A stretch of 64,000 nucleotides of DNA from a virus. Positions 2,916-32,766 of this stretch are shown piece by piece. The notes under the pieces were generated by a model, which was not told the origin of the DNA, ran no database searches, and saw only the letters and a program-made list of their open reading frames with translations. The DNA lies in IMG/VR virus record IMGVR_UViG_3300036761_001135, positions 32,001-96,000 of that record, one strand, 5' to 3'. Each line of letters begins with the position of its first letter. Positions within the stretch are counted from its first letter, which is position 1. Both the position numbers and the translations under genes were made by a program.

Positions 2916-3529
2916 AATGCTATCTGGGCCTAGACCTGTCGCTCACGGGGGCTGGGATCGTCGTGCTGAACGAGGCAGGGCAGGTTTTGCGGAGTGAGGT
3001 TGTTGGTTACAAATTGGATCGACAATCGACTCCGCGCGACAAGATCGAGCGCATCATTTTCATTGCGTCGCGGGTAATCAGCGTGGTGAAGGCGGTGAAC
3101 GTGGTCAACGATACAGGAGAGATCGAGTGGGAGGCGGGGGTGGAGCACTACGCCTTCCATCAGGGCGGTGCGGTGGCAGACCTCGGAGAGATCAACGGGG
3201 TGGTCAAGACGCAGCTTTGGTTGGCGTACAACATCGCGCCACGGGTCGTTGTGGTATCGAGCGCGCGGAAGCTTGTCATGGGCAAGGGAAACGTTAAGAA
3301 GGACAGGATCATCCCGCTTCTTAAAGAGCGCGGGTTGGTCTTTGACAACCATAACATAGCGGACGCTTACGTGATTGCGGAGGCGTTACGCCGGAGGTGT
3401 GACGATGACGGTAGCAGCGAAAGAAAACCAAGGGCTCATCGTGCTAGGAAGGGAACAGCCGGAGGAGGAAGGCGTGTGCGAGCATGCCGAGATCCGCAAA
3501 CAAGTTTTAAATTTGAGGGATCGAAGTGA
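2912..3529 (+). CDS. RuvC-like Holliday junction resolvase
   Basis: YLGLDLSLTGAG, VEHY, LGEINGVVK, GKGNVKKD, NIADAY. Confidence 0.85.
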   Translation: MKCYLGLDLSLTGAGIVVLNEAGQVLRSEVVGYKLDRQSTPRDKIERIIFIASRVISVVKAVNVVNDTGEIEWEAGVEHYAFHQGGAVADLGEINGVVKTQLWLAYNIAPRVVVVSSARKLVMGKGNVKKDRIIPLLKERGLVFDNHNIADAYVIAEALRRRCDDDGSSERKPRAHRARKGTAGGGRRVRACRDPQTSFKFEGSK

Positions 3530-4283
3530 CGAGGATTCCTGGGCGTTGGCGGACACGCTGATCCAGGTGTTCAACGGCTCCTACTACAAGCTGTGGGGGT
3601 TCACGAATTGGACGGAATACGTGACCAATGAGCTGGATTTCACGATCCGCAAGGCGCAGTACCTGATTCGCACACAGGAGTGGCTGACCAAGCTCCCGAA
3701 GAACGTGCAGGTGTGGATTCGCCAGCTTGGGTGGCGCAAGGCGCGCATGTTGGTTGGCATCGTGACGGCCGAGAACGCGGCGGAGTGGAAGGCGCGGATC
3801 GGGACGGAATGTTCGACGATGCAGCTAGACGAGATGTTGCATCAAAATGCCGTGGAAGCTGCCAATGATCCAGACGGGAAGGGTGCGGATGCTGGTAGCG
3901 AGCGTCAGCCGAATTACAACCTGGGTCGCCCGAATCCGCAACAGAGGCAGAACATGGATCGAGCGGAAGAGCGTGCGGCTGTGATTGCGGAGTGCGAGCA
4001 GACCAAGGATCGCAAGGCATATTTGTGGGATCTGATTGCGACGGATTTCCTGGCGACAAACAGTGGAATTCGCACGGTGCAGGAGTACCTGTCGAAGATC
4101 GAGACGACGTTGGGCTTGAAGCTGATTGCCATTGATGATCGGAAAGGTCTCACGGTCATTCATGGCGCGGCGACGTTGGATCTGTTTGCAGACTCGGAAG
4201 ATGAAGAAGAGGAAGAAGGGGAAGATGTTGTCGATCCTGGTATAGCCGCTGTCGATACGGATCTTTCCGCGAGTGCTTCGTGA
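3405..4283 (+). CDS. hypothetical, possibly DNA-binding protein
   Basis: GGAGG RBS; YKLWGFTNWTEYVTNELDFTIRKAQYLI helical motif; acidic tail. Confidence 0.65.
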   Translation: MTVAAKENQGLIVLGREQPEEEGVCEHAEIRKQVLNLRDRSDEDSWALADTLIQVFNGSYYKLWGFTNWTEYVTNELDFTIRKAQYLIRTQEWLTKLPKNVQVWIRQLGWRKARMLVGIVTAENAAEWKARIGTECSTMQLDEMLHQNAVEAANDPDGKGADAGSERQPNYNLGRPNPQQRQNMDRAEERAAVIAECEQTKDRKAYLWDLIATDFLATNSGIRTVQEYLSKIETTLGLKLIAIDDRKGLTVIHGAATLDLFADSEDEEEEEGEDVVDPGIAAVDTDLSASAS

Positions 4284-13524: not shown

Positions 13525-15879
13525 ATGGACAACGAAAAGATCGAAATCGCGGAACGGTTGCGCTTTGCGGCGGCGGCCTTGGCGAGCGTCTGCGACGGCG
13601 CGCGCAAACAGGATCAGGTCGGCTTTAGCGCGTCGGATACCTCCTATGGGCGGGCCATCGCGGCCACCCCGGCGGATCAATGGACCGAGGCGGATCTGGT
13701 CGCGGTGAGCGACATGCTGGGCCACTACCGGGGCCAGTTGGCGGCCTACGGGGTGGACTGCGATTCCCTGCCGCGCGTGATCAGGACCGTGCCGGTCGAC
13801 CGGCACGCCAACTACGAATCCTTCAAGACGCGAGCGGCGGCGGCGGAGCGAACTCGGGTTCGCGCGGCCTACGCGGCGGGGACGGCGAGTCGCATGCGGG
13901 TGCGCGAGGTGGCGGACTACCTGGCCTGGGTGGACCGGCGCACGGTCTGTTTCGTGAGTCCGAAGAACGATACGTTGATCGCGGCGATCAAGGCACTGCC
14001 TGGTCGGCGGCGTTGGAACGGCGAGGCCCGGCAATGGGAGGCGGAGCTGTCGGCGGAGAACGCGAAGTCGCTACCGGCGATTTTCGCGCGGTTCGATTTC
14101 GTCGTGAGCGATGCGGACTTGGCGACGATCCATGCATCGGCGCAGGCGAATCCGGCGGCGCATGCGGCTCCAGTGGCAGTCGGACCGGACCACGTTTCCA
14201 TCGAGGGGGATCGGATCGTGTTGCGCGTTCCCTACAACCCCGAGGCGACGACGGCGCTCAAGGACGCGCTGCCAGGGCGACGCTGGGATGCAGCGAACAA
14301 GGTCTGGACGGCGCCTGCCACGGCTGAGGCAGCCAAGGCGGTAGAGGCGTTGGCGGCGCGGTTTGGGTGGCGTCTAGGGGCCAGCGCGAAGCCTCTGTGG
14401 GCGATGCGGGTGGAAGCGGATCGCTTCCGGGCGGCGAGCAAGGCGTCGGACGCGGAGATCGACCTTCGAGGTCTGCGGTCAGACGCGGTTCCTTATCCGT
14501 ATCAGAAGGCGGGGGTGGTCTACACGACGTCCAAGCGTCGGGTGCTGATCGCGGACGAAATGGGAATCGGAAAATCATTACAGGCCCTTATGACGGCATC
14601 GCAGTTGGACGCCTGGCCTTGTCTGGTCGTGGCTCCGAAGGCGGTCTTGAGGCAATGGGCGCGGGAGGTCGGGAAGTTCCTGGAAGGGCGCACAGCGAGC
14701 ATTGTAGGGCTCAAGGGGACGGCGAAGCGGCTGGCCAAACACGGGATGGTCGCGGGCATGGGCGGGGACGTTGTGGTCATCAACTACGACATCCTGGGCA
14801 GGCATCTCGATGCGCTGCGGGCGCACGGATTCCGGTCGCTGGTCGTGGACGAAGGCCACTACATCAAGAGCCGCAAGACTGCGCGTTTTAAGGCGGTTAA
14901 GGAGCTGTCGGGGATGCCGGATCTGGCCTGCACGCTGCTGTTGACAGGCACGCCCGTATTGAACCGGCCCATCGAGTTGGTCGCCCAACTGGACGTGTTG
15001 GGTCAGCTTGATTCGTTTGGCGGGTTCATGCCGTTTTCCAAGCGCTATGCGAACGCTCACGAGACGAAATACGGCTGGGACATGACCGGATCGTCCAACC
15101 TGGACGAGCTGAACCGGCTGCTGCGGGAGCGCTGCATGATCCGGCGGGAGAAGGCGGACGTGCTGGCCGAGCTTCCCGCCCTGCGGCGGACCGTGGTCCC
15201 GGTCGAGGTCGATGATCCGCGTGCTTACGAGAGAGCCATGAACGACATTGTGGCTTGGATGGCGGCGAACCGGGGATCGCTCCCGTCCGAGGCGGCCTAT
15301 CGCGCTGAGATGCTGGTTCGGGTCGAGGGATTGCGACAGCTCGCGGCGCAGGGAAAGTACGCGAACGGGGTGGCCTGGGTACAGGAATGGCTTGAGGCGG
15401 CGGAGGGGCAGAAGCTGGTCCTATTCGCGCATCATCGGAACATCCAAGAGCGGCTGCTGGCGGACCTGTCTGAGTACGGCGCGGTGTCGATCAGCGGCGG
15501 GGACGCGGACGCAGCGCGGGACGCGGCGGTACAGCGGTTCTGGGCGGACCCGACCTGTCGCGTGATCGTGTGCAGCCTCAAGGCGGCGAGCGTCGGGCTG
15601 AATTTGCAGGCGGCGAGCAACGTGGCTTTTTTCGAGTTCGGCTGGCACGCGGGAGACATGGACCAGGCGGAAGCGCGCTGCCATCGCATCGGGGTGCAGG
15701 GGGCTGTCACGGCTTATTGGCTAGTCGGGGAGGACACGTTCGACGAGGACATGGTCGCGTTGATCGAGGACAAGAGGGCGGTAGCTCATGCGGCGGTGAG
15801 TGGAGGAGAGGTTGCTCCGCAGACAGACGTTGTGTCCTGGTTCGAGCGTTTGGCGGCGCGCAAGGGTGCCATGGATTGA
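13525..15879 (+). CDS. SNF2/HARP-like helicase
   Basis: ADEMGIGKS, DEGH, LTGTP, GLNLQ, QAEARCHRIG; two N-terminal HARP-like repeats (LPGRRRWN, LPGRRWD). Confidence 0.92.
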   Translation: MDNEKIEIAERLRFAAAALASVCDGARKQDQVGFSASDTSYGRAIAATPADQWTEADLVAVSDMLGHYRGQLAAYGVDCDSLPRVIRTVPVDRHANYESFKTRAAAAERTRVRAAYAAGTASRMRVREVADYLAWVDRRTVCFVSPKNDTLIAAIKALPGRRRWNGEARQWEAELSAENAKSLPAIFARFDFVVSDADLATIHASAQANPAAHAAPVAVGPDHVSIEGDRIVLRVPYNPEATTALKDALPGRRWDAANKVWTAPATAEAAKAVEALAARFGWRLGASAKPLWAMRVEADRFRAASKASDAEIDLRGLRSDAVPYPYQKAGVVYTTSKRRVLIADEMGIGKSLQALMTASQLDAWPCLVVAPKAVLRQWAREVGKFLEGRTASIVGLKGTAKRLAKHGMVAGMGGDVVVINYDILGRHLDALRAHGFRSLVVDEGHYIKSRKTARFKAVKELSGMPDLACTLLLTGTPVLNRPIELVAQLDVLGQLDSFGGFMPFSKRYANAHETKYGWDMTGSSNLDELNRLLRERCMIRREKADVLAELPALRRTVVPVEVDDPRAYERAMNDIVAWMAANRGSLPSEAAYRAEMLVRVEGLRQLAAQGKYANGVAWVQEWLEAAEGQKLVLFAHHRNIQERLLADLSEYGAVSISGGDADAARDAAVQRFWADPTCRVIVCSLKAASVGLNLQAASNVAFFEFGWHAGDMDQAEARCHRIGVQGAVTAYWLVGEDTFDEDMVALIEDKRAVAHAAVSGGEVAPQTDVVSWFERLAARKGAMD
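13846..13865. promoter_or_regulatory. degenerate palindrome copy (intragenic)
   Basis: GAGCGAACTCGGGTTCGCGC. Confidence 0.5.
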
Positions 15880-16027: not shown

Positions 16028-16837
16028 ATGGCGAAGGAAGAAAAAGTTGGCGTTACGACTAAGTTCAAACCGTTTGTTGATATTAGATTTTTGCGAGTGC
16101 GCATCCAGGGCACGGACACGTTGATCGTGCATTCGTGGTCGGAGAAGGCGATCACGGAAATCCTTGGCAAGCAGATGAAGGTGCCCAAGGGGGCCAAGGG
16201 GGAGCGCGATCCTGAGATGGATTTCGAGGCGGGCAAGTATTACGACGTTAATGGTCGTGAGGCTTTCCCGGTGACGGCGGTCAAGAACTCGATGATCACG
16301 GCGGTCAGCTCGGTTGGGGAGATGAAGAAGACCAACATGAGGCAGGCGTTTTTTGTCTGGGGTATTGAGGACAAGGAGCGCGCTACGATCTTGTTGACGT
16401 CGGGTGAGCCTGCGGTTGGAACGATGCGGGCGGACATGGTTCGGCTTGGTGGGCCTGGGAACGCGGCGGACATCCGATTTCGGCCGGAGTATCCCGACTG
16501 GATGACTGACATCATCATCGAGTACAACGCGTTGGTTGTATCAAAAGACCAGATCGTGAATCTTTTAAACATGGCTGGCTACGGGGTGGGAATCTTCGAG
16601 TGGAGACCAGAAAAAGACGGTTACTATGGTCGTTACTTCGTGACTGAGGCAGAGGACATTACGGAACGTCCACAGTGGGTGAAGGCGACTTCATATCTGC
16701 GCAAGGGCGAGATGGATATCCAGACGATCTTGCGGGCTTTGCGGGACAAGAAGGCGGTTTCTGGGACAGAGGTTGTGAACAAGAACAAGAAGGGCAAGAA
16801 GGTCGTCGAGGAGACTGAAGACGATCTGGAGGCATAG
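16028..16837 (+). CDS. RAMP/Cas7-like RNA-binding protein (VIPR-like effector)
   Basis: N-terminal strand RVRIQGTDTLIVH, FPVTAVKNSM helix, DIRFRPEYPDW, C-terminal glycine-rich loop AGYGVGIFEWRPEKDGYYGRY; directly upstream of the pentamer array. Confidence 0.7.
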   Translation: MAKEEKVGVTTKFKPFVDIRFLRVRIQGTDTLIVHSWSEKAITEILGKQMKVPKGAKGERDPEMDFEAGKYYDVNGREAFPVTAVKNSMITAVSSVGEMKKTNMRQAFFVWGIEDKERATILLTSGEPAVGTMRADMVRLGGPGNAADIRFRPEYPDWMTDIIIEYNALVVSKDQIVNLLNMAGYGVGIFEWRPEKDGYYGRYFVTEAEDITERPQWVKATSYLRKGEMDIQTILRALRDKKAVSGTEVVNKNKKGKKVVEETEDDLEA

Positions 16838-16883: not shown

Positions 16884-17960
16884 GTCCAGGCAAGGCAGGA
16901 GCGGGAGGCGAGGATAGGAGAGGCCGGGGAAGGCGTGGCAGGAATGGCACGGGCAGTACGGGATAGGTGCGGCCAGGATTGGCAGGGCAGGAACGGCTTG
17001 GCGCGGATCGGACTGGTTGTTTATGGATCGGAGAGGCAGGAATGGCGGTGCCTGGAGAGCCGAGGAGGGGTATGGAGGGTTGAGGAACGGCAGGAGTGGA
17101 AAGTTAAGGCGTGTGGAGGTCGGGCCGGGACTGGCGAGGCAGGAGAGGTTGGCATGGATTGTCACGGCGCGGATCGGCAGGAAAGGTCTGGCTTGGATAG
17201 TCGGGTCACGGATTGGCAGGCGAGGCGGGGACCGGCGGGGAGAGGCGCAGAGAGGCAGGATTGGATCGGTGCGGAACGGTGTGTCGTGGCATGGCAGGCA
17301 TGGCAGTGTCGGGAATGGGTTGGTAGGGAAAGGCGCGGCTGGGCAGGAATGGCCAGGACGCGACGGGAGGGGCGAGTGGTGGTGCGGAATGGCAAGGCAG
17401 GCGAGTCTGGGAGCGGTGTGGTGAGTTGTGGAATGGAGTGGACTGGAAGGCAGGATAGGTGAGGCGCGTTCTGGCCTGGGTAGGTCGGGATTGGCGAGGC
17501 AGGATAGGTTGGGTCCGAACGGGCGCGTCGTGGGGTGGGATGGCAAGGCAGGTATGGCAAGGCTAGGACTGGCGAGTTGAGGAGTGGAAGGGGGAGGCAG
17601 GCGGGGATAGGTCTGGAGGGGATAGGCGAGGTTTGGAAGGGATTGGCAGGAGAGGATAGGCAAGGCCAGGCATGTTGTGGGATGGCAGGGACTGGCAGGA
17701 TTGGCACGGAATGGTCGGGTGGCGTCTGGTGTGGTAAGGCGAGGATTGGCAGGCGTGTTGCGGCAAGGCTCGGACGGATGGACTGGGCAGGGCAGGTTGG
17801 GAGTGGGATGGATTGGATTGTTGAGGCCGGGCTGGAGAGGCCAGGTGGGACACGGTGGGAATGGGCTGGGCCAGGATTGGCTGGAATGGTGGGGTATGGA
17901 GGGCCAGGGTGGCGCTGGGCAAGGAAGCTTCTGGCGTGTCAGGAGTGGAAAGGTCTGTAG
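16884..17960 (+). repeat. array of GG(A/C/T)NN pentamers in ~22 units separated by GGCA delimiters (putative guide-RNA array)
   Basis: GGCA at 16894, 16937, 16986, 17035, 17089, 17138, 17176, 17215, 17254, 17293, 17342, 17396, 17449, 17498, 17547, 17596, 17645, 17694, 17748, 17791; degenerate GGCT at 17830, 17879; units mostly 35, 45 or 50 nt. Confidence 0.9.
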
Positions 17961-17965
17961 GGGTG

Positions 17966-18053
17966 CCGCTCGTCATGGAGCGGAAGCGTCTGTAGGAGTT
18001 CGAAACGCAGCAGGGCTGGCATCTCTAGGGGTGCCGGCCCTGTCCTGCCTTGC
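17966..18053 (+). other. structured array trailer with anti-delimiter
   Basis: hairpins 17966-17983 and 18011-18042; TCCTGCCTTGC 18043-18053 is the reverse complement of GCAAGGCAGGA 16890-16900. Confidence 0.6.
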
Positions 18054-18080
18054 GTAAAGAACTTGTGGTATACAGCATCC

Positions 18081-18536
18081 ATGAGCAACAAACCTGCAAC
18101 CCAAGAAGGTTCCATGCAGTGGGGGCTCTCGCCAGAAGGTGCCGTGTTCAGCGAAGATTTCGAGGGCTGGCTTTGGATCCCAGTGGATCGACTCATCGTG
18201 ATCGACCAGTGCCAGAATCGTGATCAGTATTCTACCTGGGCCACCCCCTCATGGCAGGGAATCTCCATCTGCGGAGTGCATCACACAGACCAAGATGAAA
18301 AAATCGACCGGTTCGTAAAAGCATGCCTCCACGGTCCCATCTTGCTACAACCAAAACGACTGTGCGCCGTCCGTAGCGTATCCTCAGAAAAACCGCCAAC
18401 CAACGTCATGGTGCTCGATCACATCTCCGTCGTGAAAATACGAAAATCCCCCTTCATCGACCGACTCTATAGCGACATGGACCTGATAGGACGACTCCTA
18501 TCCCTACACACAAACATCCCAACCCCGATCTCTTGA
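18081..18536 (+). CDS. hypothetical protein
   Basis: 151-codon ORF; A/C-rich, unlike neighbours; no clear RBS. Confidence 0.4.
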   Translation: MSNKPATQEGSMQWGLSPEGAVFSEDFEGWLWIPVDRLIVIDQCQNRDQYSTWATPSWQGISICGVHHTDQDEKIDRFVKACLHGPILLQPKRLCAVRSVSSEKPPTNVMVLDHISVVKIRKSPFIDRLYSDMDLIGRLLSLHTNIPTPIS

Positions 18537-18680
18537 CAAACTTGTCGCACAAAGCCTAATTTCAATGCACGCTCTAAGCTGTAGCGGTCCCAACCATAGA
18601 CCGCATTGATGTACAAGGCTGAAAAAGATGACCCGTGTCACGATGAATATGATATATCATATTACTGTATCGAGGGGACC

Positions 18681-19427
18681 ATGAGCAAAGCGGTCCCATA
18701 CTCAAAACTCAAGAAGATGCGCTGCCATAGAGAAGTCTATGAAAGACTGTGCGCTGGTTATCCCTTCCCAGAGGTGGCTAGGTTTATTCAAGAGGACGAA
18801 GGCGAGTACCTAGACGTAGGTCGCCGATCCCTCATTGAAATATTGCGCGACTATTCCGAACGCGAAATCGTCGGTGTAGATCTGATCGCACCACGCTTGC
18901 CGCATTTGATCGTGAAGGCACAAAAGGAATTCAGTGACCGATTGGAGGATCTCCGTCGCCTGGAGCGAGCCTACGAGGCGTTGTTGTACAGATTCGATAT
19001 GTCCCATGGTGCGGAGCGGCGCAACGGCAGGGTGAACGCGGACGTAGACCGGCAGGCCAAGGTCTTGATGGACTATGTGTCCAAGATGCACGACATCAAG
19101 ATGGATTTGGGGCTCACGGGGTCGCGTGATCTTGGCACGTTGACGGTGAGTGCAGAGCGTCTGGCAGAGATTCGGGACAAGTACGGCGAGGGTGCGGCGC
19201 GTGCCTTTGGAGATCCGGTCTCACGAGCCAAAGTTCTTGGTCTGTTGAAGCGTGTGATGCGCATTTCGGAAGACTCTGGCATCGACGATGCGGACGTTGA
19301 AGAGGCGAACCTGGGTTCGCGTGACGATCCCGAACTTTATGAGGACGCCATAGAGGCCGAATATTGTGAGGCGACTACCCCAAAATCGACTAGCGAGAGT
19401 GCCGAACAAGATTCGGAAGACAGATGA
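18681..19427 (+). CDS. putative terminase small subunit
   Basis: helical protein overlapping the terL start (ATGA); TTGACA at 18533 upstream; identity inferred from position. Confidence 0.6.
   Translation: MSKAVPYSKLKKMRCHREVYERLCAGYPFPEVARFIQEDEGEYLDVGRRSLIEILRDYSEREIVGVDLIAPRLPHLIVKAQKEFSDRLEDLRRLERAYEALLYRFDMSHGAERRNGRVNADVDRQAKVLMDYVSKMHDIKMDLGLTGSRDLGTLTVSAERLAEIRDKYGEGAARAFGDPVSRAKVLGLLKRVMRISEDSGIDDADVEEANLGSRDDPELYEDAIEAEYCEATTPKSTSESAEQDSEDR
19303..19322. promoter_or_regulatory. palindrome copy 4 (intragenic)
   Basis: AGGCGAACCTGGGTTCGCGT. Confidence 0.8.
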
Positions 19428-22400
19428 TCGTAACAGGCAACAATGGTCGTCGCAGAAGCATTAGGACGACCAGCGAGGACGTGTTGTCGTTCGAGGATGG
19501 GTACGCCCTATGCACACCAGAGGAGCGCGCCTTAGTCCATGCTTTGTTGAGCGATGACCACCCAAACGATGCGGCGAAGCTCAGTTTGGAGTTGAACGAT
19601 TCGCTCTATCAGCGGCCATTGGTGCCGATCCAGCAGTTCATCGAAGATCCTTATTACCTTGGGGACTCCATGATGACTCTGTATCCGGCGTTAAAGCAGG
19701 ATATTATTGACCTTTTTGCGGCTCCATACAGGGAAGTCGTGCTCACGGGCTCCATCGGCGCGGGCAAGAATTTTTTGGCATCTGCGGCGATTTGCCGAAT
19801 TTTGTACGAGCTGTCCTGCCTGAAGAACCCACAGATGACGTTTGGGATGTCTCCTGGTACAGAGATGGTGATCATGCTGATCTCGAAGAACCTCGTCTTA
19901 GCCCGCGAGGTGATGAAGACCAGCATCGACGACAAGGTGAAGCTCAGCCCGTACTTTATGCAGCACTTCACCCCCAAGTTCTCGACCGACTACACGCTGT
20001 TTCCCAACAACATCCGCATGACCATCGGAAGCTATGGGGCAGAGCGTGCCTTGGGAGCGAATATTTTTAGCTGCATGCTGGACGAATGTCTCAGTGGTTC
20101 AGCATGGTTGCAAATAAAAATAAATATTGATTTTTGCGCTGGTTTGTGCGATACAATCGGCATGTCCGTTGGTGATTTGTGGGCAATGGGGCCTTCGGAT
20201 CGTGACGGGTTGCTGGTTGAAGCGCTGGACCATGTGACGGGTCGGCAGACGTGGACGCCGTTTCGGATGCGGCTATCCACGGTGCAACCGTTGGTACGGA
20301 TTGAAGCCGAGGCGAACCCAGGTTCGTGTCGAGCCATCGAGCCTTCCCTTGAACATCCTGTATTGGTGCGGCGCGGCGACTGGCTAGTTTATGTCCCGGC
20401 GATTGAGATCAGCGTCGGGGATGAAGTGGCTTGGAGGCGCGACGATGGCGAAAAAGGGCGAGACACTGAGCGAGGAGATGAAGGCACGTCTATCGGAGGC
20501 GGCGAGCCAGCGGACTGGCGAACTCAATCCATTCTGGGGGAAGACGCACAGCGAGGAGATTCGAGCTTTGTTTGCGGAGAACGCGCGGAAGCAGTGGACG
20601 GGGACGCACCAAAGCGAGGAGACAAAGGCGAAGAGATCGGCATCTTTGAAGGGGCGCGTCATGTCTGCGGAGACGCGGGCAAAGATGGCAGCTTCGGCAA
20701 AGGCACGTTGTACGCCGGAGTGGCGTGCGAAGAAGTCGGCAGAGATGCAGGAACGTGTTGCAGCAGGGCTGGGACCGACGCCACCAATTCAACCTGCCGG
20801 GCCAGATCATCCGTTGAGTGGGAAGCCGAAGACGGAACAGCATCGACAGGCGTTGAGCGCGGCGAGGCTAGGGTTGCCGGGCCATGCGCACACCGAGGAG
20901 TCGCGGGACAAGATTTCGGCGGGGAACGTGCAGGCGATCAAAGATCGGGTGCGGTCATACCGCTACCATGTGTCATCGCCGGATGGCGGGGTGGTTCCAT
21001 GCCGGACGGAGAACGAAGGTCGTTTGGCGCTCCACCTATGTGCGGAGAAGAATGTAACAGCGGTCGTTGGCGAAGATCATATGACGTGGGTGCCATACAG
21101 CATAAACGGACAAAATCGGTTGACAGTGGGAGACTTTCTTGTGACGAGGGACGACGGGGTGCAGGTTTTGGTGGAAGGAAAAGACCCAACGTCCATGTAC
21201 AACCAGCGTACAATGGCGCGCATAGAGGCGCTGTGGAAGTGGAGTCAGGAGAACAGGGTTCTGTTTATTCTTGCGATCAATGGGAAGCCATTCCCAAGCG
21301 TATGGACAGGCCCATTTGTGGACAAATTTCTCATGGACCATCTGTTTTATCAACGACAACGTGTAATCAGGAGGAGGGTCAACTCTGTTGTAATTTCTCC
21401 TTGCGGAACGATTGTGCCGTGCAAAACGGAGATGGAACGGGCGCTGGCGAGATGTTTGTGTATGGAACCTGGAGTTGCCAGTGTGGTTGGAACGGATCGG
21501 ACAGGGTCGATTCCGTACACCACGAGCGGACGAGTGCATCATGTGGAGCCAGGTTTCATGGTGACGCGGTCGGACGGGGTCATTGTCGTTGTGGAGGTGG
21601 AGACGGCATCTGGTCTGTATCGAGAGAAAGACAGGGCGCGGTTGGAGGCATTGTGGGCGTGGTGCCAGGAGCACAAGACGCCGTTTGTGTTGGCTATCAA
21701 CGAAAAGGGGTTCCCGAGCGTATGGACGGGGCCGTTTGTGACGGAAGAGTTCATGGAGAGCGTGCGGCAACGTCGCGTGCGCTTTCGCACCATGCAGACG
21801 GTCGATACCTTGGAGGTTGCCGTGCCGAGTGTTTGCGAGTTGACGACCTGCCTACAGAGTACCGACTCGTTCGCGTGATCTCGACGCGCCTGTTGCCGGC
21901 CGAGCAGACCTACAGCATCGAGACGGACTGCAAGACGTTTGTGGCTGACGGATGCGTGGTCCACAACACCAACTTCCCGCCCAAGAGAAGTGCTCAGCAG
22001 ATTAACCAGACGTTTGGCAAGAAGCTGACGGCGGCCAACTTTGACATCGTGGAGAAGGTGTACCGATCCATGCTGCGGCGCATCAAGTCGCGCTTCCAGA
22101 TCGCTGGCGGCGACTTTCCGGGCATGGTCATCATGGTGTCTTCGGCGGCGACCTTGGACAGCTTCACAGAGCGCAAGTTGAGGGACGCGCGTCGAGACCC
22201 AACTGTGTTCGTTCGAGATCACACGGCGTGGACATCGAAGCCCAGGGATCATTTTTGTGGTAAATGGTTCTACGTGCTGTGTTCAAAATCCAGCCTTCGG
22301 TCTCGTATTCTCGAAGAGGGCGAGTACAACGAGATCACGCAGGAGTTTTTGCAGGAAAACAATGCGTGGATGATCGAAGTGCCGATTGAGTATAGGGAGG

Positions 22401-24649
22401 ACTTCGAGTCCAACCTTGAGGACTCCTTGCGAGACATCGCGGGCGTGTCCACGCAGGCCATCTCGGCTTTCTTCCAGAGGGTGGATGCCATCGACGCCTG
22501 CATAGTGGATCGTCCGCATCCATTCTCCAGCGAGGTCTGGGTGGCTGGGTCGCCGGCGACGTTCACTTGGGATACGCTATGTCGGAAGATCGAGCGGAGA
22601 CTGCCGGGTGGATTTGTAGAAGCCGCATGGGCACCGAAGGAATCTCCAAGCCATCCTCGTTGGATTCATATTGATACTTCCATCAGTGGGGACTGCGTGA
22701 CGGCGGATACGCTGGTGGCAACCCCGGCTGGGAACGTTCGCATTGATTCCATCGTTGCGGGAACTCCTGTGTATAGTCTGGGTGCAGACGGAAAGTTCAC
22801 GGTTGCCACTGCGACGAATCCTGGTCTGAAACGGCGGGAGTCGCCGTTGGTACGTGTCGTGACAGATGGGGGATCGATTCGGTGTACGCCCGATCACAAG
22901 TTCATGTTGCGTGATGGAACATATTGCGAGGCCAGGCTTTTGCGGGATGGAGATTCGTTGATGCCACTGTACAGGCGTTGTTCAGCTAAGCATCCTGGAC
23001 GTCGCGGGGGTGGAGGGTACGAGGAAATTTATCAGCCTGCGTCAGAGCGGTATGCGGCAGCTCATCGTGCGGTGGCGGAATATAAGATAGGTAGATTGCT
23101 AACTGAAGACGAGTGCGTTCACCATGTGGGAACCGAGAATCCAGACAATAAGTTAGACAACCGGCCAGAGAATCTGGAGGTGATGGCGAAGCGGGACCAC
23201 TGGCGTTTACACCAGACGCTGATTGTCGCCTACAACAAAAGTGAGCGGCATCGTGCCTGGGCTCGGGAGTGGGGGCTATGGTCTTGCACGCATCCGACGC
23301 CTGCCATGGTGGAGGCGCGTCGTCGGAATGGGAGTGCGCGGTGCCGATTGATCAATGCTGGGGAATCGAACCCATCCAAGCTGGAGAAAAATAGGAAGCG
23401 ATTTGGGGACATGGTGCGGGAGCGGCATGCCAATGGTTTGTGTACGGAGAACTACAAGAATTTTAAAAGACCTGAAGTACGTGAGAAAACTCGTGCGGCG
23501 GTGTCGATTTCCAGTCGAAATCGCCAATGGAGCGATGAGAGCCGACGCAAGTTATCCATTCGCCGACAGGAATACTTGGCCAGGGTTGCCTCGGGGGAAA
23601 TCGAACAGAAGCCGGTTAGCGCGGAGACACGGGCTAAGATGTCTGCGTCGCGTCGTGGCAAGACATGGACAGATCAGGCTAGAACGAATCATATGGCTTC
23701 CTTGAAGCAACAGGAGTGGACAGAAGAGAGCCGGGCTAAGATAGCAGACGCCAATAGAAACCGCGTGTGGAGTGAGGAGAGCCGTCAGAAATGTGCAGAG
23801 GCACAACGGAGACGGCATGAGAAGAAGCAGTCACAGCGGGAGATTAAGAATCACAAGGTTTTGCGGGTGGAGGATGCGGGCCATGAGGATGTGTATTGCC
23901 TGACGGTGGACGGTGAGCACAACTTCGTGGTGGTGTTTGGCGAGGATCGATTTTCGTCTGGGGTTGTGATCCACAACAGCACAGGATTCGTGATGGGGCG
24001 GATAGAAAGATGGGTAGAGGTAGTGCGCCGTGACGGGGACGGCCATGCCTATACGGACACCGCGCCTTATTACGTCATCGAGGTGCTTCTGTGCATTCGG
24101 CCTCCGACCGGCGATCAAATCTACATGCCGGATTTGAGAAGGCTGGTTTACGAATTGCAGGCGCATGGTTTTCCTATCCATGGGTTTTCGTCAGATTCAT
24201 TCCAAGCCGTGGAAATGCACCAACAGATTCGGCGGCACGGAATCCATACCGAGCTGATTTCGATGGACCGCATCATAGATCCCTATGAGGAGTTGAAGTC
24301 GGCAATTTATGAAAAAAGGATTGAGTATTACGGGTATACTCCATTGCTTCAAGAACTAAGATCGCTTGAGTATGATCGTGTAAAAGGAAAAATAGACCAT
24401 CCTCGTCATGCCAGTAAGGACGTTGCCGATGCATTGGCTGGCGTGGTCTGGGGCCTTCGCCAACAGGCCGCTCGCTTGCCGTGGGCTGCGGATGCTGATA
24501 CACCAATAAGAGCGGTCGGTCATGAGCATGGCTGGGTGAGCGACATGATCCCAGCGGAGGACGTGGATCTCGAAGATGTGAGGTTAACTCGCAGGACGGG
24601 TGCCGCCGCATTAGATATCATGCTCCCATTTTTCATAGGAGATGACTGA
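19424..24649 (+). CDS. terL: terminase large subunit with two inteins (mature ~686 aa)
   Basis: Walker A GSIGAGK, Walker B CMLDE, nuclease HIDTSISGD, KIDHP..SKDVADALAG; upstream of portal. Confidence 0.92.
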   Translation: MIVTGNNGRRRSIRTTSEDVLSFEDGYALCTPEERALVHALLSDDHPNDAAKLSLELNDSLYQRPLVPIQQFIEDPYYLGDSMMTLYPALKQDIIDLFAAPYREVVLTGSIGAGKNFLASAAICRILYELSCLKNPQMTFGMSPGTEMVIMLISKNLVLAREVMKTSIDDKVKLSPYFMQHFTPKFSTDYTLFPNNIRMTIGSYGAERALGANIFSCMLDECLSGSAWLQIKINIDFCAGLCDTIGMSVGDLWAMGPSDRDGLLVEALDHVTGRQTWTPFRMRLSTVQPLVRIEAEANPGSCRAIEPSLEHPVLVRRGDWLVYVPAIEISVGDEVAWRRDDGEKGRDTERGDEGTSIGGGEPADWRTQSILGEDAQRGDSSFVCGERAEAVDGDAPKRGDKGEEIGIFEGARHVCGDAGKDGSFGKGTLYAGVACEEVGRDAGTCCSRAGTDATNSTCRARSSVEWEAEDGTASTGVERGEARVAGPCAHRGVAGQDFGGERAGDQRSGAVIPLPCVIAGWRGGSMPDGERRSFGAPPMCGEECNSGRWRRSYDVGAIQHKRTKSVDSGRLSCDEGRRGAGFGGRKRPNVHVQPAYNGAHRGAVEVESGEQGSVYSCDQWEAIPKRMDRPICGQISHGPSVLSTTTCNQEEGQLCCNFSLRNDCAVQNGDGTGAGEMFVYGTWSCQCGWNGSDRVDSVHHERTSASCGARFHGDAVGRGHCRCGGGDGIWSVSRERQGAVGGIVGVVPGAQDAVCVGYQRKGVPERMDGAVCDGRVHGERAATSRALSHHADGRYLGGCRAECLRVDDLPTEYRLVRVISTRLLPAEQTYSIETDCKTFVADGCVVHNTNFPPKRSAQQINQTFGKKLTAANFDIVEKVYRSMLRRIKSRFQIAGGDFPGMVIMVSSAATLDSFTERKLRDARRDPTVFVRDHTAWTSKPRDHFCGKWFYVLCSKSSLRSRILEEGEYNEITQEFLQENNAWMIEVPIEYREDFESNLEDSLRDIAGVSTQAISAFFQRVDAIDACIVDRPHPFSSEVWVAGSPATFTWDTLCRKIERRLPGGFVEAAWAPKESPSHPRWIHIDTSISGDCVTADTLVATPAGNVRIDSIVAGTPVYSLGADGKFTVATATNPGLKRRESPLVRVVTDGGSIRCTPDHKFMLRDGTYCEARLLRDGDSLMPLYRRCSAKHPGRRGGGGYEEIYQPASERYAAAHRAVAEYKIGRLLTEDECVHHVGTENPDNKLDNRPENLEVMAKRDHWRLHQTLIVAYNKSERHRAWAREWGLWSCTHPTPAMVEARRRNGSARCRLINAGESNPSKLEKNRKRFGDMVRERHANGLCTENYKNFKRPEVREKTRAAVSISSRNRQWSDESRRKLSIRRQEYLARVASGEIEQKPVSAETRAKMSASRRGKTWTDQARTNHMASLKQQEWTEESRAKIADANRNRVWSEESRQKCAEAQRRRHEKKQSQREIKNHKVLRVEDAGHEDVYCLTVDGEHNFVVVFGEDRFSSGVVIHNSTGFVMGRIERWVEVVRRDGDGHAYTDTAPYYVIEVLLCIRPPTGDQIYMPDLRRLVYELQAHGFPIHGFSSDSFQAVEMHQQIRRHGIHTELISMDRIIDPYEELKSAIYEKRIEYYGYTPLLQELRSLEYDRVKGKIDHPRHASKDVADALAGVVWGLRQQAARLPWAADADTPIRAVGHEHGWVSDMIPAEDVDLEDVRLTRRTGAAALDIMLPFFIGDD
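20310..20329. promoter_or_regulatory. palindrome copy 5 (inside intein 1)
   Basis: AGGCGAACCCAGGTTCGTGT. Confidence 0.78.
20445..21878 (+). CDS. endonuclease nested in the +1 frame of intein 1 (NUMOD3-like repeats plus two TnsA-like PD-(D/E)xK domains)
   Basis: own GGAGG RBS; HSEE, SEETKAK, SAETRAKM, HTEESRDKIS repeats; GDFLV..VEGK; duplicated FPSVWTGPFV. Confidence 0.82.
   Translation: MAKKGETLSEEMKARLSEAASQRTGELNPFWGKTHSEEIRALFAENARKQWTGTHQSEETKAKRSASLKGRVMSAETRAKMAASAKARCTPEWRAKKSAEMQERVAAGLGPTPPIQPAGPDHPLSGKPKTEQHRQALSAARLGLPGHAHTEESRDKISAGNVQAIKDRVRSYRYHVSSPDGGVVPCRTENEGRLALHLCAEKNVTAVVGEDHMTWVPYSINGQNRLTVGDFLVTRDDGVQVLVEGKDPTSMYNQRTMARIEALWKWSQENRVLFILAINGKPFPSVWTGPFVDKFLMDHLFYQRQRVIRRRVNSVVISPCGTIVPCKTEMERALARCLCMEPGVASVVGTDRTGSIPYTTSGRVHHVEPGFMVTRSDGVIVVVEVETASGLYREKDRARLEALWAWCQEHKTPFVLAINEKGFPSVWTGPFVTEEFMESVRQRRVRFRTMQTVDTLEVAVPSVCELTTCLQSTDSFA
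22694..23977 (+). mobile_element. intein 2 in TerL (428 aa) with in-frame HNH and NUMOD3-like repeats
   Basis: GD|CVTADT..CTPDHKF..HRAVAE..VHH..NKLDNRPENL..VYCLTVDGEHNF..IHN|S. Confidence 0.92.
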
Positions 24650-31155: not shown

Positions 31156-32766
31156 ATGCAAGCTCGAAACATCGTGGAAGAAGACGGCAAGCGGACCGTG
31201 TTCGACGAGTCCTACGGCAAGGTGTGCGAGGCGCGTTGGGCGAAGATTTTGCAGCCCATGAACGAGCGCGATCCAATCAACAGCCACTACGTGCGGCGCT
31301 GCACGGCGATCATCATGGAGAACGAGATGGACCACATCAAGTCTCTCCATGAGGACACCCTCAGCACCAACGCAGGCGCGTTCACGAAGTACGTGTTCCC
31401 GGTTCTTCGCCGGGTGTTCCCGAACCTGATCGCCAACCAACTCGTCTCGGTGCAGCCGATGACCGCTCCCGTGGGCGGAATCTTCTACTACGAGAAGAAG
31501 TACGACGACCGCAAGGGCACCAAGATCCCGCAGTACGGCATCACCAACGCTCCGTACAACATGGCCTATGACGGCCAGTTGGCGGCGGGCGACAACATCA
31601 ACCAGAACTTCGCCCGCATGTACTCCTCGGAGTACGTGGACTACGACGTCATCTGCACGCAAGCGACCGCCGTGGCCTCTCTTTCGAACGTGGGAGCCAA
31701 CTGCCGCCTGCCCGAGTGGAAGCCGATGCGCGCCCCGGGCGTGGACGGACAGCGCACGTTCTACACCAAGCTCTACTACCGCGTGCTCAACCACGCGGGC
31801 ACACTGCCCATCGACATCGTGGCCACCCTCGACCCGACCGGCCTGACCAGCAACCTCGTTGACCAGTACGGGGCCACCGTGGGCACGGTTACCGTGGGAA
31901 CCGGAGCCTGGACCCTCAACGCCAAGGACGAGACCGGCGTAGCCTCGACCTTCACACCAAGCACCGTGATCTACGCGCAGTATTTCGTGAACTTCGAGCA
32001 AGCTGGCTACACCAGCGGTTCTGAGATCCCGAGCATCAGCTTGGACATCGCTCTTCACACCGTGAAGGCCGAGAGCCGCAAGCTGAAGGCTCGCTGGAGC
32101 GTCGAGGCAGTGGACGACATGCGCGCTCTGCATGGGATGGACGCCGAGACCGAACTGGTCGGAACCTTCGCCAACGAGGTCATGCTGGAGACGGACCGCG
32201 AGATCGTGGACGCCCTCGTGACCGGCGCCAAGTTCGCCGCGACCTACACCTACTCGTACTCGGCCGGTTCCCAGGGCGAGATCGAGACCATCCGCAACCT
32301 GCTGACCAAGATCAGCGCCGTGGCGGCCTCCATCCACACCGCGTCCGGTCGCGCTCCGGCCAACTTCATCGTGGTGTCTCCGAGCATCGGCGCATTGCTC
32401 GACCAGCTCTCGACCCATGGTGACTTCGCCAGCATCGAGCAGAACGTGCAGAGCCCGACCTATGGGCCGATCACGTCCGACTTCGGCATCGCTCGTATCG
32501 GCACCCTGCTCAAGCGCTTCGCGGTCTACCAAGACCCCTACATGACCGCCAACAAGGTGCTCATAGGACTCAAGGGCAACAACTTCCTGGATGCCGGGTT
32601 CGTGTACGCACCGTACATCCCACTCCAGGTCACCCCGACCTTCATGGATCCAAACGACTTCACGTTCCGAAAGGGCGTCAGAACCCGATTTGCCTCCAAG
32701 ATGCTACGCCCGGAATACTACGGCGTCATCACCTGCTCCGGCCTCCCCGCTGTGACCGTCGTCTGA
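31156..32766 (+). CDS. major capsid protein (T4 gp23-like)
   Basis: VQPMTAPVG, AESRKLKARWSVEA..HGMDAETEL, YAPYIPL, DPNDF..TRF; C-ending codon bias. Confidence 0.95.
   Translation: MQARNIVEEDGKRTVFDESYGKVCEARWAKILQPMNERDPINSHYVRRCTAIIMENEMDHIKSLHEDTLSTNAGAFTKYVFPVLRRVFPNLIANQLVSVQPMTAPVGGIFYYEKKYDDRKGTKIPQYGITNAPYNMAYDGQLAAGDNINQNFARMYSSEYVDYDVICTQATAVASLSNVGANCRLPEWKPMRAPGVDGQRTFYTKLYYRVLNHAGTLPIDIVATLDPTGLTSNLVDQYGATVGTVTVGTGAWTLNAKDETGVASTFTPSTVIYAQYFVNFEQAGYTSGSEIPSISLDIALHTVKAESRKLKARWSVEAVDDMRALHGMDAETELVGTFANEVMLETDREIVDALVTGAKFAATYTYSYSAGSQGEIETIRNLLTKISAVAASIHTASGRAPANFIVVSPSIGALLDQLSTHGDFASIEQNVQSPTYGPITSDFGIARIGTLLKRFAVYQDPYMTANKVLIGLKGNNFLDAGFVYAPYIPLQVTPTFMDPNDFTFRKGVRTRFASKMLRPEYYGVITCSGLPAVTVV

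Follow-up and report, generated by a model that had tools for sequence, protein, structure and literature searches.

A probable staggered-array VIPR locus in an uncultured 169-kb phage, and a guide unit matching the putative small terminase gene of its relatives better than its own

Within a 64,000-nt stretch of viral DNA (positions 32,001 to 96,000 of IMG/VR record IMGVR_UViG_3300036761_001135; this whole stretch is called the window below, and coordinates are counted from its first letter unless a contig is named), a tract of tandem G-rich pentamers lies beside a gene for a Cas7-like RAMP protein, and it is likely that the two constitute a VIPR (Viral Interference Programmable Repeat) system, i.e., the CRISPR-like DNA silencer of phages first described in 2026 (bioRxiv 10.64898/2026.04.26.720920), in its staggered-array form. 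One unit of the tract, unit 13, is a guide matching the putative small terminase gene (terS) of related phages better than the phage's own copy, and its most likely role would be to silence the terS-terL genes of a co-infecting relative. An earlier note on the same letters had proposed just such a guide, skipping wobble bases, aimed at the packaging gene of a related competitor and sparing its own; the mechanism it arrived at is not new, being the same as that of the VIPR system published in 2026, and while the guide array, the code and the better-matching relatives stood up to the analysis, the sparing of self was not established by it.

According to the three VIPR preprints of 2026 (10.64898/2026.04.26.720920; 10.64898/2026.04.26.720927, on structures; and 10.64898/2026.10.15.759431), the Vipr RAMP protein polymerises on a vrRNA of 9–16 GGY-NN pentamers, whose positions 4–5 pair with the target DNA, every third target base (usually the codon wobble) being skipped; both strands can be targeted, with no protospacer-adjacent motif, and transcription is silenced by binding. 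The natural targets are rival phages, satellites and the VIPR loci of rivals, vipr itself being a target class. Targets are called in these papers at an 80% threshold, which no self match reached in their sets, and guides are reported to score lower on self than on rivals (10.64898/2026.10.15.759431); mismatch tolerance is not quantified in the preprints.

The protein and the array beside it

The 269-aa product of the gene directly 5' of the array, to which Pfam assigned no family, was modelled with AlphaFold using 45 homologues (pLDDT 85), and the top 50 PDB matches found by Foldseek for this model were all Csm3/Cmr4/Cas7 proteins, i.e., type III and type VII CRISPR effectors (E from 4e-6, probability 1.00). 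At the sequence level, phmmer matched one solved chain in the PDB, 36pp_D, the “SUSP1 Vipr protein” (E 0.007). The structure paper (10.64898/2026.04.26.720927) has R138, D177, W178 and R179 of SUSP1 Vipr holding two guanines of the repeat, and in the alignment R152 falls on R138 and E191-W192-R193 on D177-W178-R179 (D177 being replaced by Glu), while H17 is not alignable; among the 45 homologues, R152, E191 and R193 never vary, and at least 90% have W192. The locus has, in other words, the minimal RAMP protein of VIPR (RRM core, glycine-rich loop and thumb) together with the residues holding the first two guanines of the pentamer.

Features of the locus, in window coordinates
Feature	Position	Strand	Description
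SNF2-family helicase	13525-15879	+	Pfam SNF2-rel_dom and Helicase_C; directly upstream of vipr
vipr gene	16028-16837	+	269-aa Cas7-like RAMP protein, phrog_4652 family; array directly 3'
Staggered vrRNA array	16889-17960	+	~20 units of GGCA plus 7–11 (mostly 9) GGNNN pentamers; 1.1 kb
Guide unit 12	17400-17444	+	NN string GA TG GC GT GA GT AT GT CT
Guide unit 13	17453-17497	+	GGCA on both flanks; NN string TA GA GC CT CT TA CG TT GA
Putative small terminase gene (terS)	18681-19427	+	248 aa; positional call, stop overlaps terL ORF start
Self near-target in putative terS	18972-18998	+	codons 98–106, YEALLYRFD; 15/18
terL with two inteins	19424-24649	+	Pfam Intein_splicing, HNH_3, NUMOD3; weak PHROG terL match

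The array, which has the replication genes of the phage on one side and its packaging genes on the other, has no counterpart elsewhere in the 168,688-nt virus genome. It is 49% G (GC skew ~0.55), with a G autocorrelation of 0.43 at lag 5 and an identity peak at lag 49, i.e., a 49-nt super-period, and dynamic-programming segmentation divided it into ~20 units with 18 GGCA punctuations. Position 1 is G in 95% of the 192 pentamers and position 2 in 88%, positions 4–5 are free, and position 3 is A/C/T/G at 37/31/21/11%, the pyrimidine of GGY thus not being kept, which, in view of the NNNGG-type variants published for some clades, is taken as a variant consensus and does not exclude the locus from VIPR; the tandem run of GG-anchored pentamers with two free bases expected of a vrRNA is there, most units having nine. 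A search of Rfam with the array gave no match, and a promoter and terminator scan gave nothing above shuffles.

Several other accounts of the tract were tried and abandoned. The long open reading frames (ORFs) that cross it were rejected as coding, and are held to be artefactual because relatives differ by unit-sized indels (39–54 nt) that break every frame. A ring-binding RNA of the TRAP-like kind and a CsrA sponge, as well as a Rho site on the C-rich strand, an R-loop origin, a pac site and a G-quadruplex, were dropped on the Vipr match of the adjacent protein and a working decoding test (described below); the idea of the earlier note that the array is one of guides is supported.

As to the form of VIPR represented, the GGCA|G junctions fit the published description of staggered arrays, in which successive vrRNAs share a 1-nt overlap and NNNGG-type variants occur in some clades (10.64898/2026.04.26.720920, fig. 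S18 legend), a form that is not among the architectures confirmed in that paper by small-RNA sequencing. The locus has in common with it a phage-encoded Vipr RAMP gene beside a long GG-anchored pentamer tract, the 1-nt overlap, the want of a structured tail between guides and an NNNGG-type consensus of the kind listed there, and differs in that the array is large (~20 guides, 1.1 kb) and sits between replication and packaging genes. Among the seven published types, type II (found in a Pseudomonas fulva prophage and in Escherichia phage SUSP1) is alike in the positions 4–5 code with a 1-nt skip on the wobble, in the R/DW(E)R residues binding GG and in targets that are rival mobile elements, rivals' vipr included; the SUSP1 vrRNAs, however, are separate ~100-nt RNAs that keep strictly to GGY and each end in a 3' pseudoknot tail, whereas the units here are parted by GGCA alone and have A at position 3 in 37% of cases, and the protein here, at 269 aa, is longer than SUSP1 Vipr (202 aa), having an additional helix at the C-terminus and a tail rich in Lys. 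Since no structured 3' tail is seen, the locus was filed under the staggered-array form and not under type II. The Cas7 backbone of class 1 CRISPR-Cas (Csm3/Cmr4) shares the protein fold and the thumb that periodically interrupts the guide-target duplex, yet the locus lacks a repeat-spacer array (direct repeats parted by unique spacers were not seen), as well as an adaptation module and any further cas genes, its neighbours being a DHH protein, the SNF2 helicase and the terminase genes, and its guide is 5-nt periodic with two informative bases per protomer.

Related contigs from IMG/VR and other assemblies (L001, G001–G004, L028 and L029), whose vipr is 62–99% and whose terS is 78–100% identical to those of the window, have the gene order DHH - SNF2 helicase - vipr - array - terS - terL in common, and all of them carry a period-5 array of like architecture 3' of the vipr homologue. 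In the closest one, L001 (array at 3276-4250 of the contig), the flanking proteins are 99–100% identical, yet the units are shared only in part and differently arranged, which is the turnover of array content expected for fast-evolving guides; units 12–14 were found only in the window and L001, unit 13 being unchanged in this 99% relative and missing from the arrays of the more distant ones. The last regular units (17780-17878), including the non-GG pentamers GACAC and GAATG, are conserved in G001–G004, L024, L028 and L029, while other units turn over.

The pairing of gene and array extends further: in two cultured actinophages, where the phrog_4652 gene is annotated as hypothetical, a GGC-NN array with GGCAG junctions stands downstream of that gene among the tail genes (Gordonia phage ODay, L076 ~3085-3250) or upstream of it in the early or immunity region (Mycobacterium phage Quico, L077 ~2110-2390). 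These are VIPR loci in well-studied phages, and, as the two phages are distant ones, the pairing is both old and general. An abundant relative (L024–L027; L024 4619-4775), on the other hand, has no vipr, and of its array only the two terminal units remain, flanked by terS and the SNF2 helicase; this relative resembles, by analogy, the VIPR-null phages with solo guide RNAs described in 10.64898/2026.10.15.759431, where guides likewise score lower on self, and is a candidate for being one.

Reading the guides against related phages

For the decoding test, 69 units of 9–12 pentamers from all arrays were compared with non-self sequences under 12 decoding schemes (registers 4-5, 3-4 and 3-5, each with skip lengths 0–3) at an identity cut-off of 0.88. 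Eight matches of at least 0.88 were obtained with positions 4-5 and a skip of one, all eight deriving from two adjacent units of the window, and none with the other 11 schemes. The premise of the earlier note that bases 4–5 of each pentamer are the informative ones and that the wobble is skipped thus agrees both with the published VIPR code and with this test; the two units concerned, 12 and 13, are each matched in frame, with the one-base skip aligned on the wobble.

Unit 13 consists of nine pentamers (GGATA GGTGA GGCGC GTTCT GGCCT GGGTA GGTCG GGATT GGCGA), and the near-target in the window's own terS reads TAC GAG GCG TTG TTG TAC AGA TTC GAT, in frame with the ORF starting at ATG 18681; on re-reading, the letters and coordinates of both were exactly as the earlier note had them. 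Bases 4–5 of the pentamers agree with codon positions 1–2 of this site in 15 of the 18 informative bases, the three mismatches being the first bases of the Leu, Leu and Arg codons. At the nucleotide level, such a match on self is ordinary (there are four among 21 nine-pentamer windows, and 6.6% of shuffled guides attain 15/18 in the 169-kb self genome), as the note had itself cautioned. At the amino-acid level, the match is 9/9; no second match of this kind exists, whatever the unit, either elsewhere in the window or in the rest of the 169-kb genome, and none arose in 300 array-wide or 200 within-unit shuffles.

The YEALLYRFD peptide is conserved among the closer terS homologues, and the match of unit 13 to the site is at its lowest in the window itself, in L001 and in the vipr-less L024–L027 (15/18), rising to 16/18 in G002, G004, L005 and L028, to 17/18 in G001, G003, L029 and L030, and to 18/18 in L043, a metagenomic terS homologue that is 60% identical. 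A match of 17/18 in 166 kb of related, non-self phage DNA was attained by one of 1000 shuffled guides (probability ~0.001). L043 came from an exact metagenome scan with the unit 13 pattern, in which 16 of the 17 matches were plainly due to chance; its homologous codons are TAC GAA GCG CTT CTG TAC CGC TTT GAT, so that the CTN and CGN versions, whose absence from all relatives the earlier note had named as grounds for giving up its reading, do occur (CTT CTG and CGC). The single exact IMG/VR match of the pattern was put down to chance as well, having in-frame stops and no terS homology, and two contigs considered as remote terS relatives (L036 and L037) proved to encode LacI-family regulators, again chance matches.

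The neighbouring unit 12 matches the vipr gene of G003 (L003 614-640) in 16 of 18 bases, in frame and without a mismatch in its first eight dinucleotides, as opposed to 14/18 in G001, 13/18 in G002 and 10/18 in self at the homologous vipr site; the shuffled-guide probability is ~0.004, and out of 28 exact IMG/VR matches to its eight-dinucleotide core, only that of G003 lies in a vipr homologue. G003 is, therefore, matched by both guides. No target was found for the other units among the related-phage sequences compared, units 14 and 16 had no exact match in IMG/VR, and the likeness of the unit at 17093 to the minus strand of the relatives' terL region (14–15/18, with no clear frame) was treated as chance.

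By analogy with SUSP1, each GG(N) along the guide would be held by a Vipr protomer, leaving the two bases behind it exposed for pairing with a strand of the target DNA, in which one base in three would be flipped out; the protein-RNA-DNA filament so formed would block transcription. The array is presumably transcribed and processed into such guides, and binding would then silence the gene bound; unit 13, which spells the YEALLYRFD site in frame with the skipped base on the wobble and fits it best in relatives and worst in self, would most likely serve to shut down terS-terL, the packaging operon, in a relative infecting the same cell.

Sparing of self and other explanations of the match

Where the peptide is identical in two phages, differences outside the wobble position are confined to Leu, Arg and Ser codons, and all three such codons in the YEALLYRFD site do differ between the guide and self. 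The joint probability of TTR, TTR and AGR is ~0.016 under the codon usage of the genome and ~0.04 under that of terS. It is a reasonable inference, and a plausible one, that self is spared through these first-position synonyms, in which case three mismatched dinucleotides would presumably suffice; it stays at that level because Leu/Arg switches are common throughout the gene (mixed TTR/CTN in 12 of the 19 conserved Leu columns and AGR/CGN in 6 of the 18 conserved Arg columns of terS among relatives), and an arms-race signal at the target codons was not distinguishable from this background of synonymous switching. The vipr-less relative shares the self codon state at the site. As regards the self-avoidance claimed in the earlier note, then, the mismatches are all at Leu/Arg first positions, as it said, but the codon state cannot be told from background switching, and the self match (83%) passes the 80% threshold of the VIPR papers.

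This last circumstance is one of several that weigh against unit 13 being a guide for relatives within a VIPR array. At position 3 the pentamers often carry a purine, where the solved system has GGY; a target could be named for only 2 of ~19 usable units; the identity of the target gene as terS is positional only; and no close relative matches perfectly, because the first Leu codon is TTR in all of them. Given the conserved peptide, moreover, an 18/18 match is expected from codon usage (~0.38 per relative), and therefore L043 lifts a refutation rather than adding strong support.

Should the array be VIPR but unit 13 act on its own gene, it would bring about a partial or timed repression of terS-terL, i.e., an autoregulation of packaging. 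The self match above the cut-off would suit this, as would the distance of merely 1.5 kb between guide and near-target in one genome and the fact that no other unit has a perfect amino-acid-level match in the 169-kb genome. We nevertheless regard it as unlikely, as the match is systematically better in relatives (16–18/18) than in self, where shuffled guides reach 15/18 in the 6.6% of cases given above, as the published sets have no self matches of 80% or more and guides scoring lower on self than on rivals, and as unit 12 fits a relative (16/18) clearly better than self (10/18). That the array is VIPR and the terS match of unit 13 is a coincidence, the real target being elsewhere or gone, could be argued from the amount of sequence compared (~19 units against ~0.5 Mb), from the exact metagenome and IMG/VR matches that were plainly chance and from the majority of units having no identified target. 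Against it stand a decoding rule fixed beforehand by the literature, shuffled-guide probabilities of ~0.001 and ~0.004 for units 13 and 12, the fact that both matches fall in frame, with the skip on the wobble, and in genes of one and the same set of related phages, and the failure of all 500 shuffles to give a perfect amino-acid-level match, which together make coincidence quite improbable.

There is, finally, little to commend the idea that the tract holds no guides at all and is either a DNA element (a packaging site, an R-loop or origin, a G-quadruplex) or an RNA acting as a protein sponge. Its place just upstream of terS-terL, the GC skew of ~0.55 and the GG every 5 nt are what such an element might show; the array, however, travels with the vipr homologue and not with the terminase (lying by the tail genes in ODay and in the early or immunity region in Quico), the adjacent Cas7-like RAMP protein has the Vipr GG-binding residues, and it is only under the VIPR rule that the two free bases spell out genes of relatives, so that this explanation is very improbable indeed. 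We keep to the reading of the locus as a staggered-array VIPR system with unit 13 directed at relatives.

Target gene, neighbouring genes and wider meaning

The label of small terminase given to the target gene in the earlier note agrees with its position before terL and Portal_T4 (the latter gene comes after terL in relatives), but no family or fold search confirmed it: the terS candidate has no Pfam, PHROG or PDB sequence family match, and fold searches gave generic coiled-coil or helical-hairpin matches only, with the G20c terS at E ~4. In its model, an N-terminal helical domain is followed by a long helical hairpin (74–143), the target codons lying in the long helix 74–115. The terL gene is probably co-transcribed with the target gene upstream of it; its ORF of 1741 aa has inserts at ~223–848 and 1091–1517 with intein, HNH and NUMOD3 signatures, and in the relatives G002 and G004 the three terL exteins are contiguous.

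The SNF2 helicase keeps its position in all relatives, the vipr-less one included, and is probably not VIPR-specific; with respect to accessory vap genes, no vap1-like gene was recognised near vipr. An ORF of 151 aa between the array and terS (18081-18536), with a negative GC skew unlike that of its surroundings, occurs only in L001 and G003 (44% identity) and had no family or fold match (including no usable Atlas match).

The VIPR papers hold that a target cannot escape without a protein change, and six-fold-degenerate codons go unmentioned in them; in 10.64898/2026.10.15.759431, where discrimination is by diverged vrRNA/vipr, whereas in the present case self and rivals share one and the same protein site, neither Leu, Arg nor “first position” occurs and the six-fold-codon route is not discussed. 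There is, arguably, a gap in the published argument, since Leu, Arg and Ser codons admit synonymous changes at the first position, and all three guide-self mismatches described here are of this kind. It is possible, if doubtful, that in conflicts between kin with an identical target site, Leu TTR/CTN, Arg AGR/CGN and Ser AGY/TCN are the sole discriminator of self from rival and at the same time the sole route of synonymous escape from a wobble-skipping guide, the terS guide being tuned to the CTN/CGN of rivals, self having TTG TTG AGA, and the array serving kin exclusion.

As far as the sequences go, the VIPR one-base-skip code extends to the staggered-array form with a relaxed third position, in an uncultured 169-kb sediment phage, and the two guide-target pairs that occur naturally here, one with terS and one with vipr of related phages, provide material on mismatch tolerance. 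If the tentative proposal on six-fold-degenerate codons were true, the published claim that there is no escape without protein change would need a qualification for such codons, and the large staggered array would be a kin-exclusion system directed against the packaging and VIPR genes of rivals.

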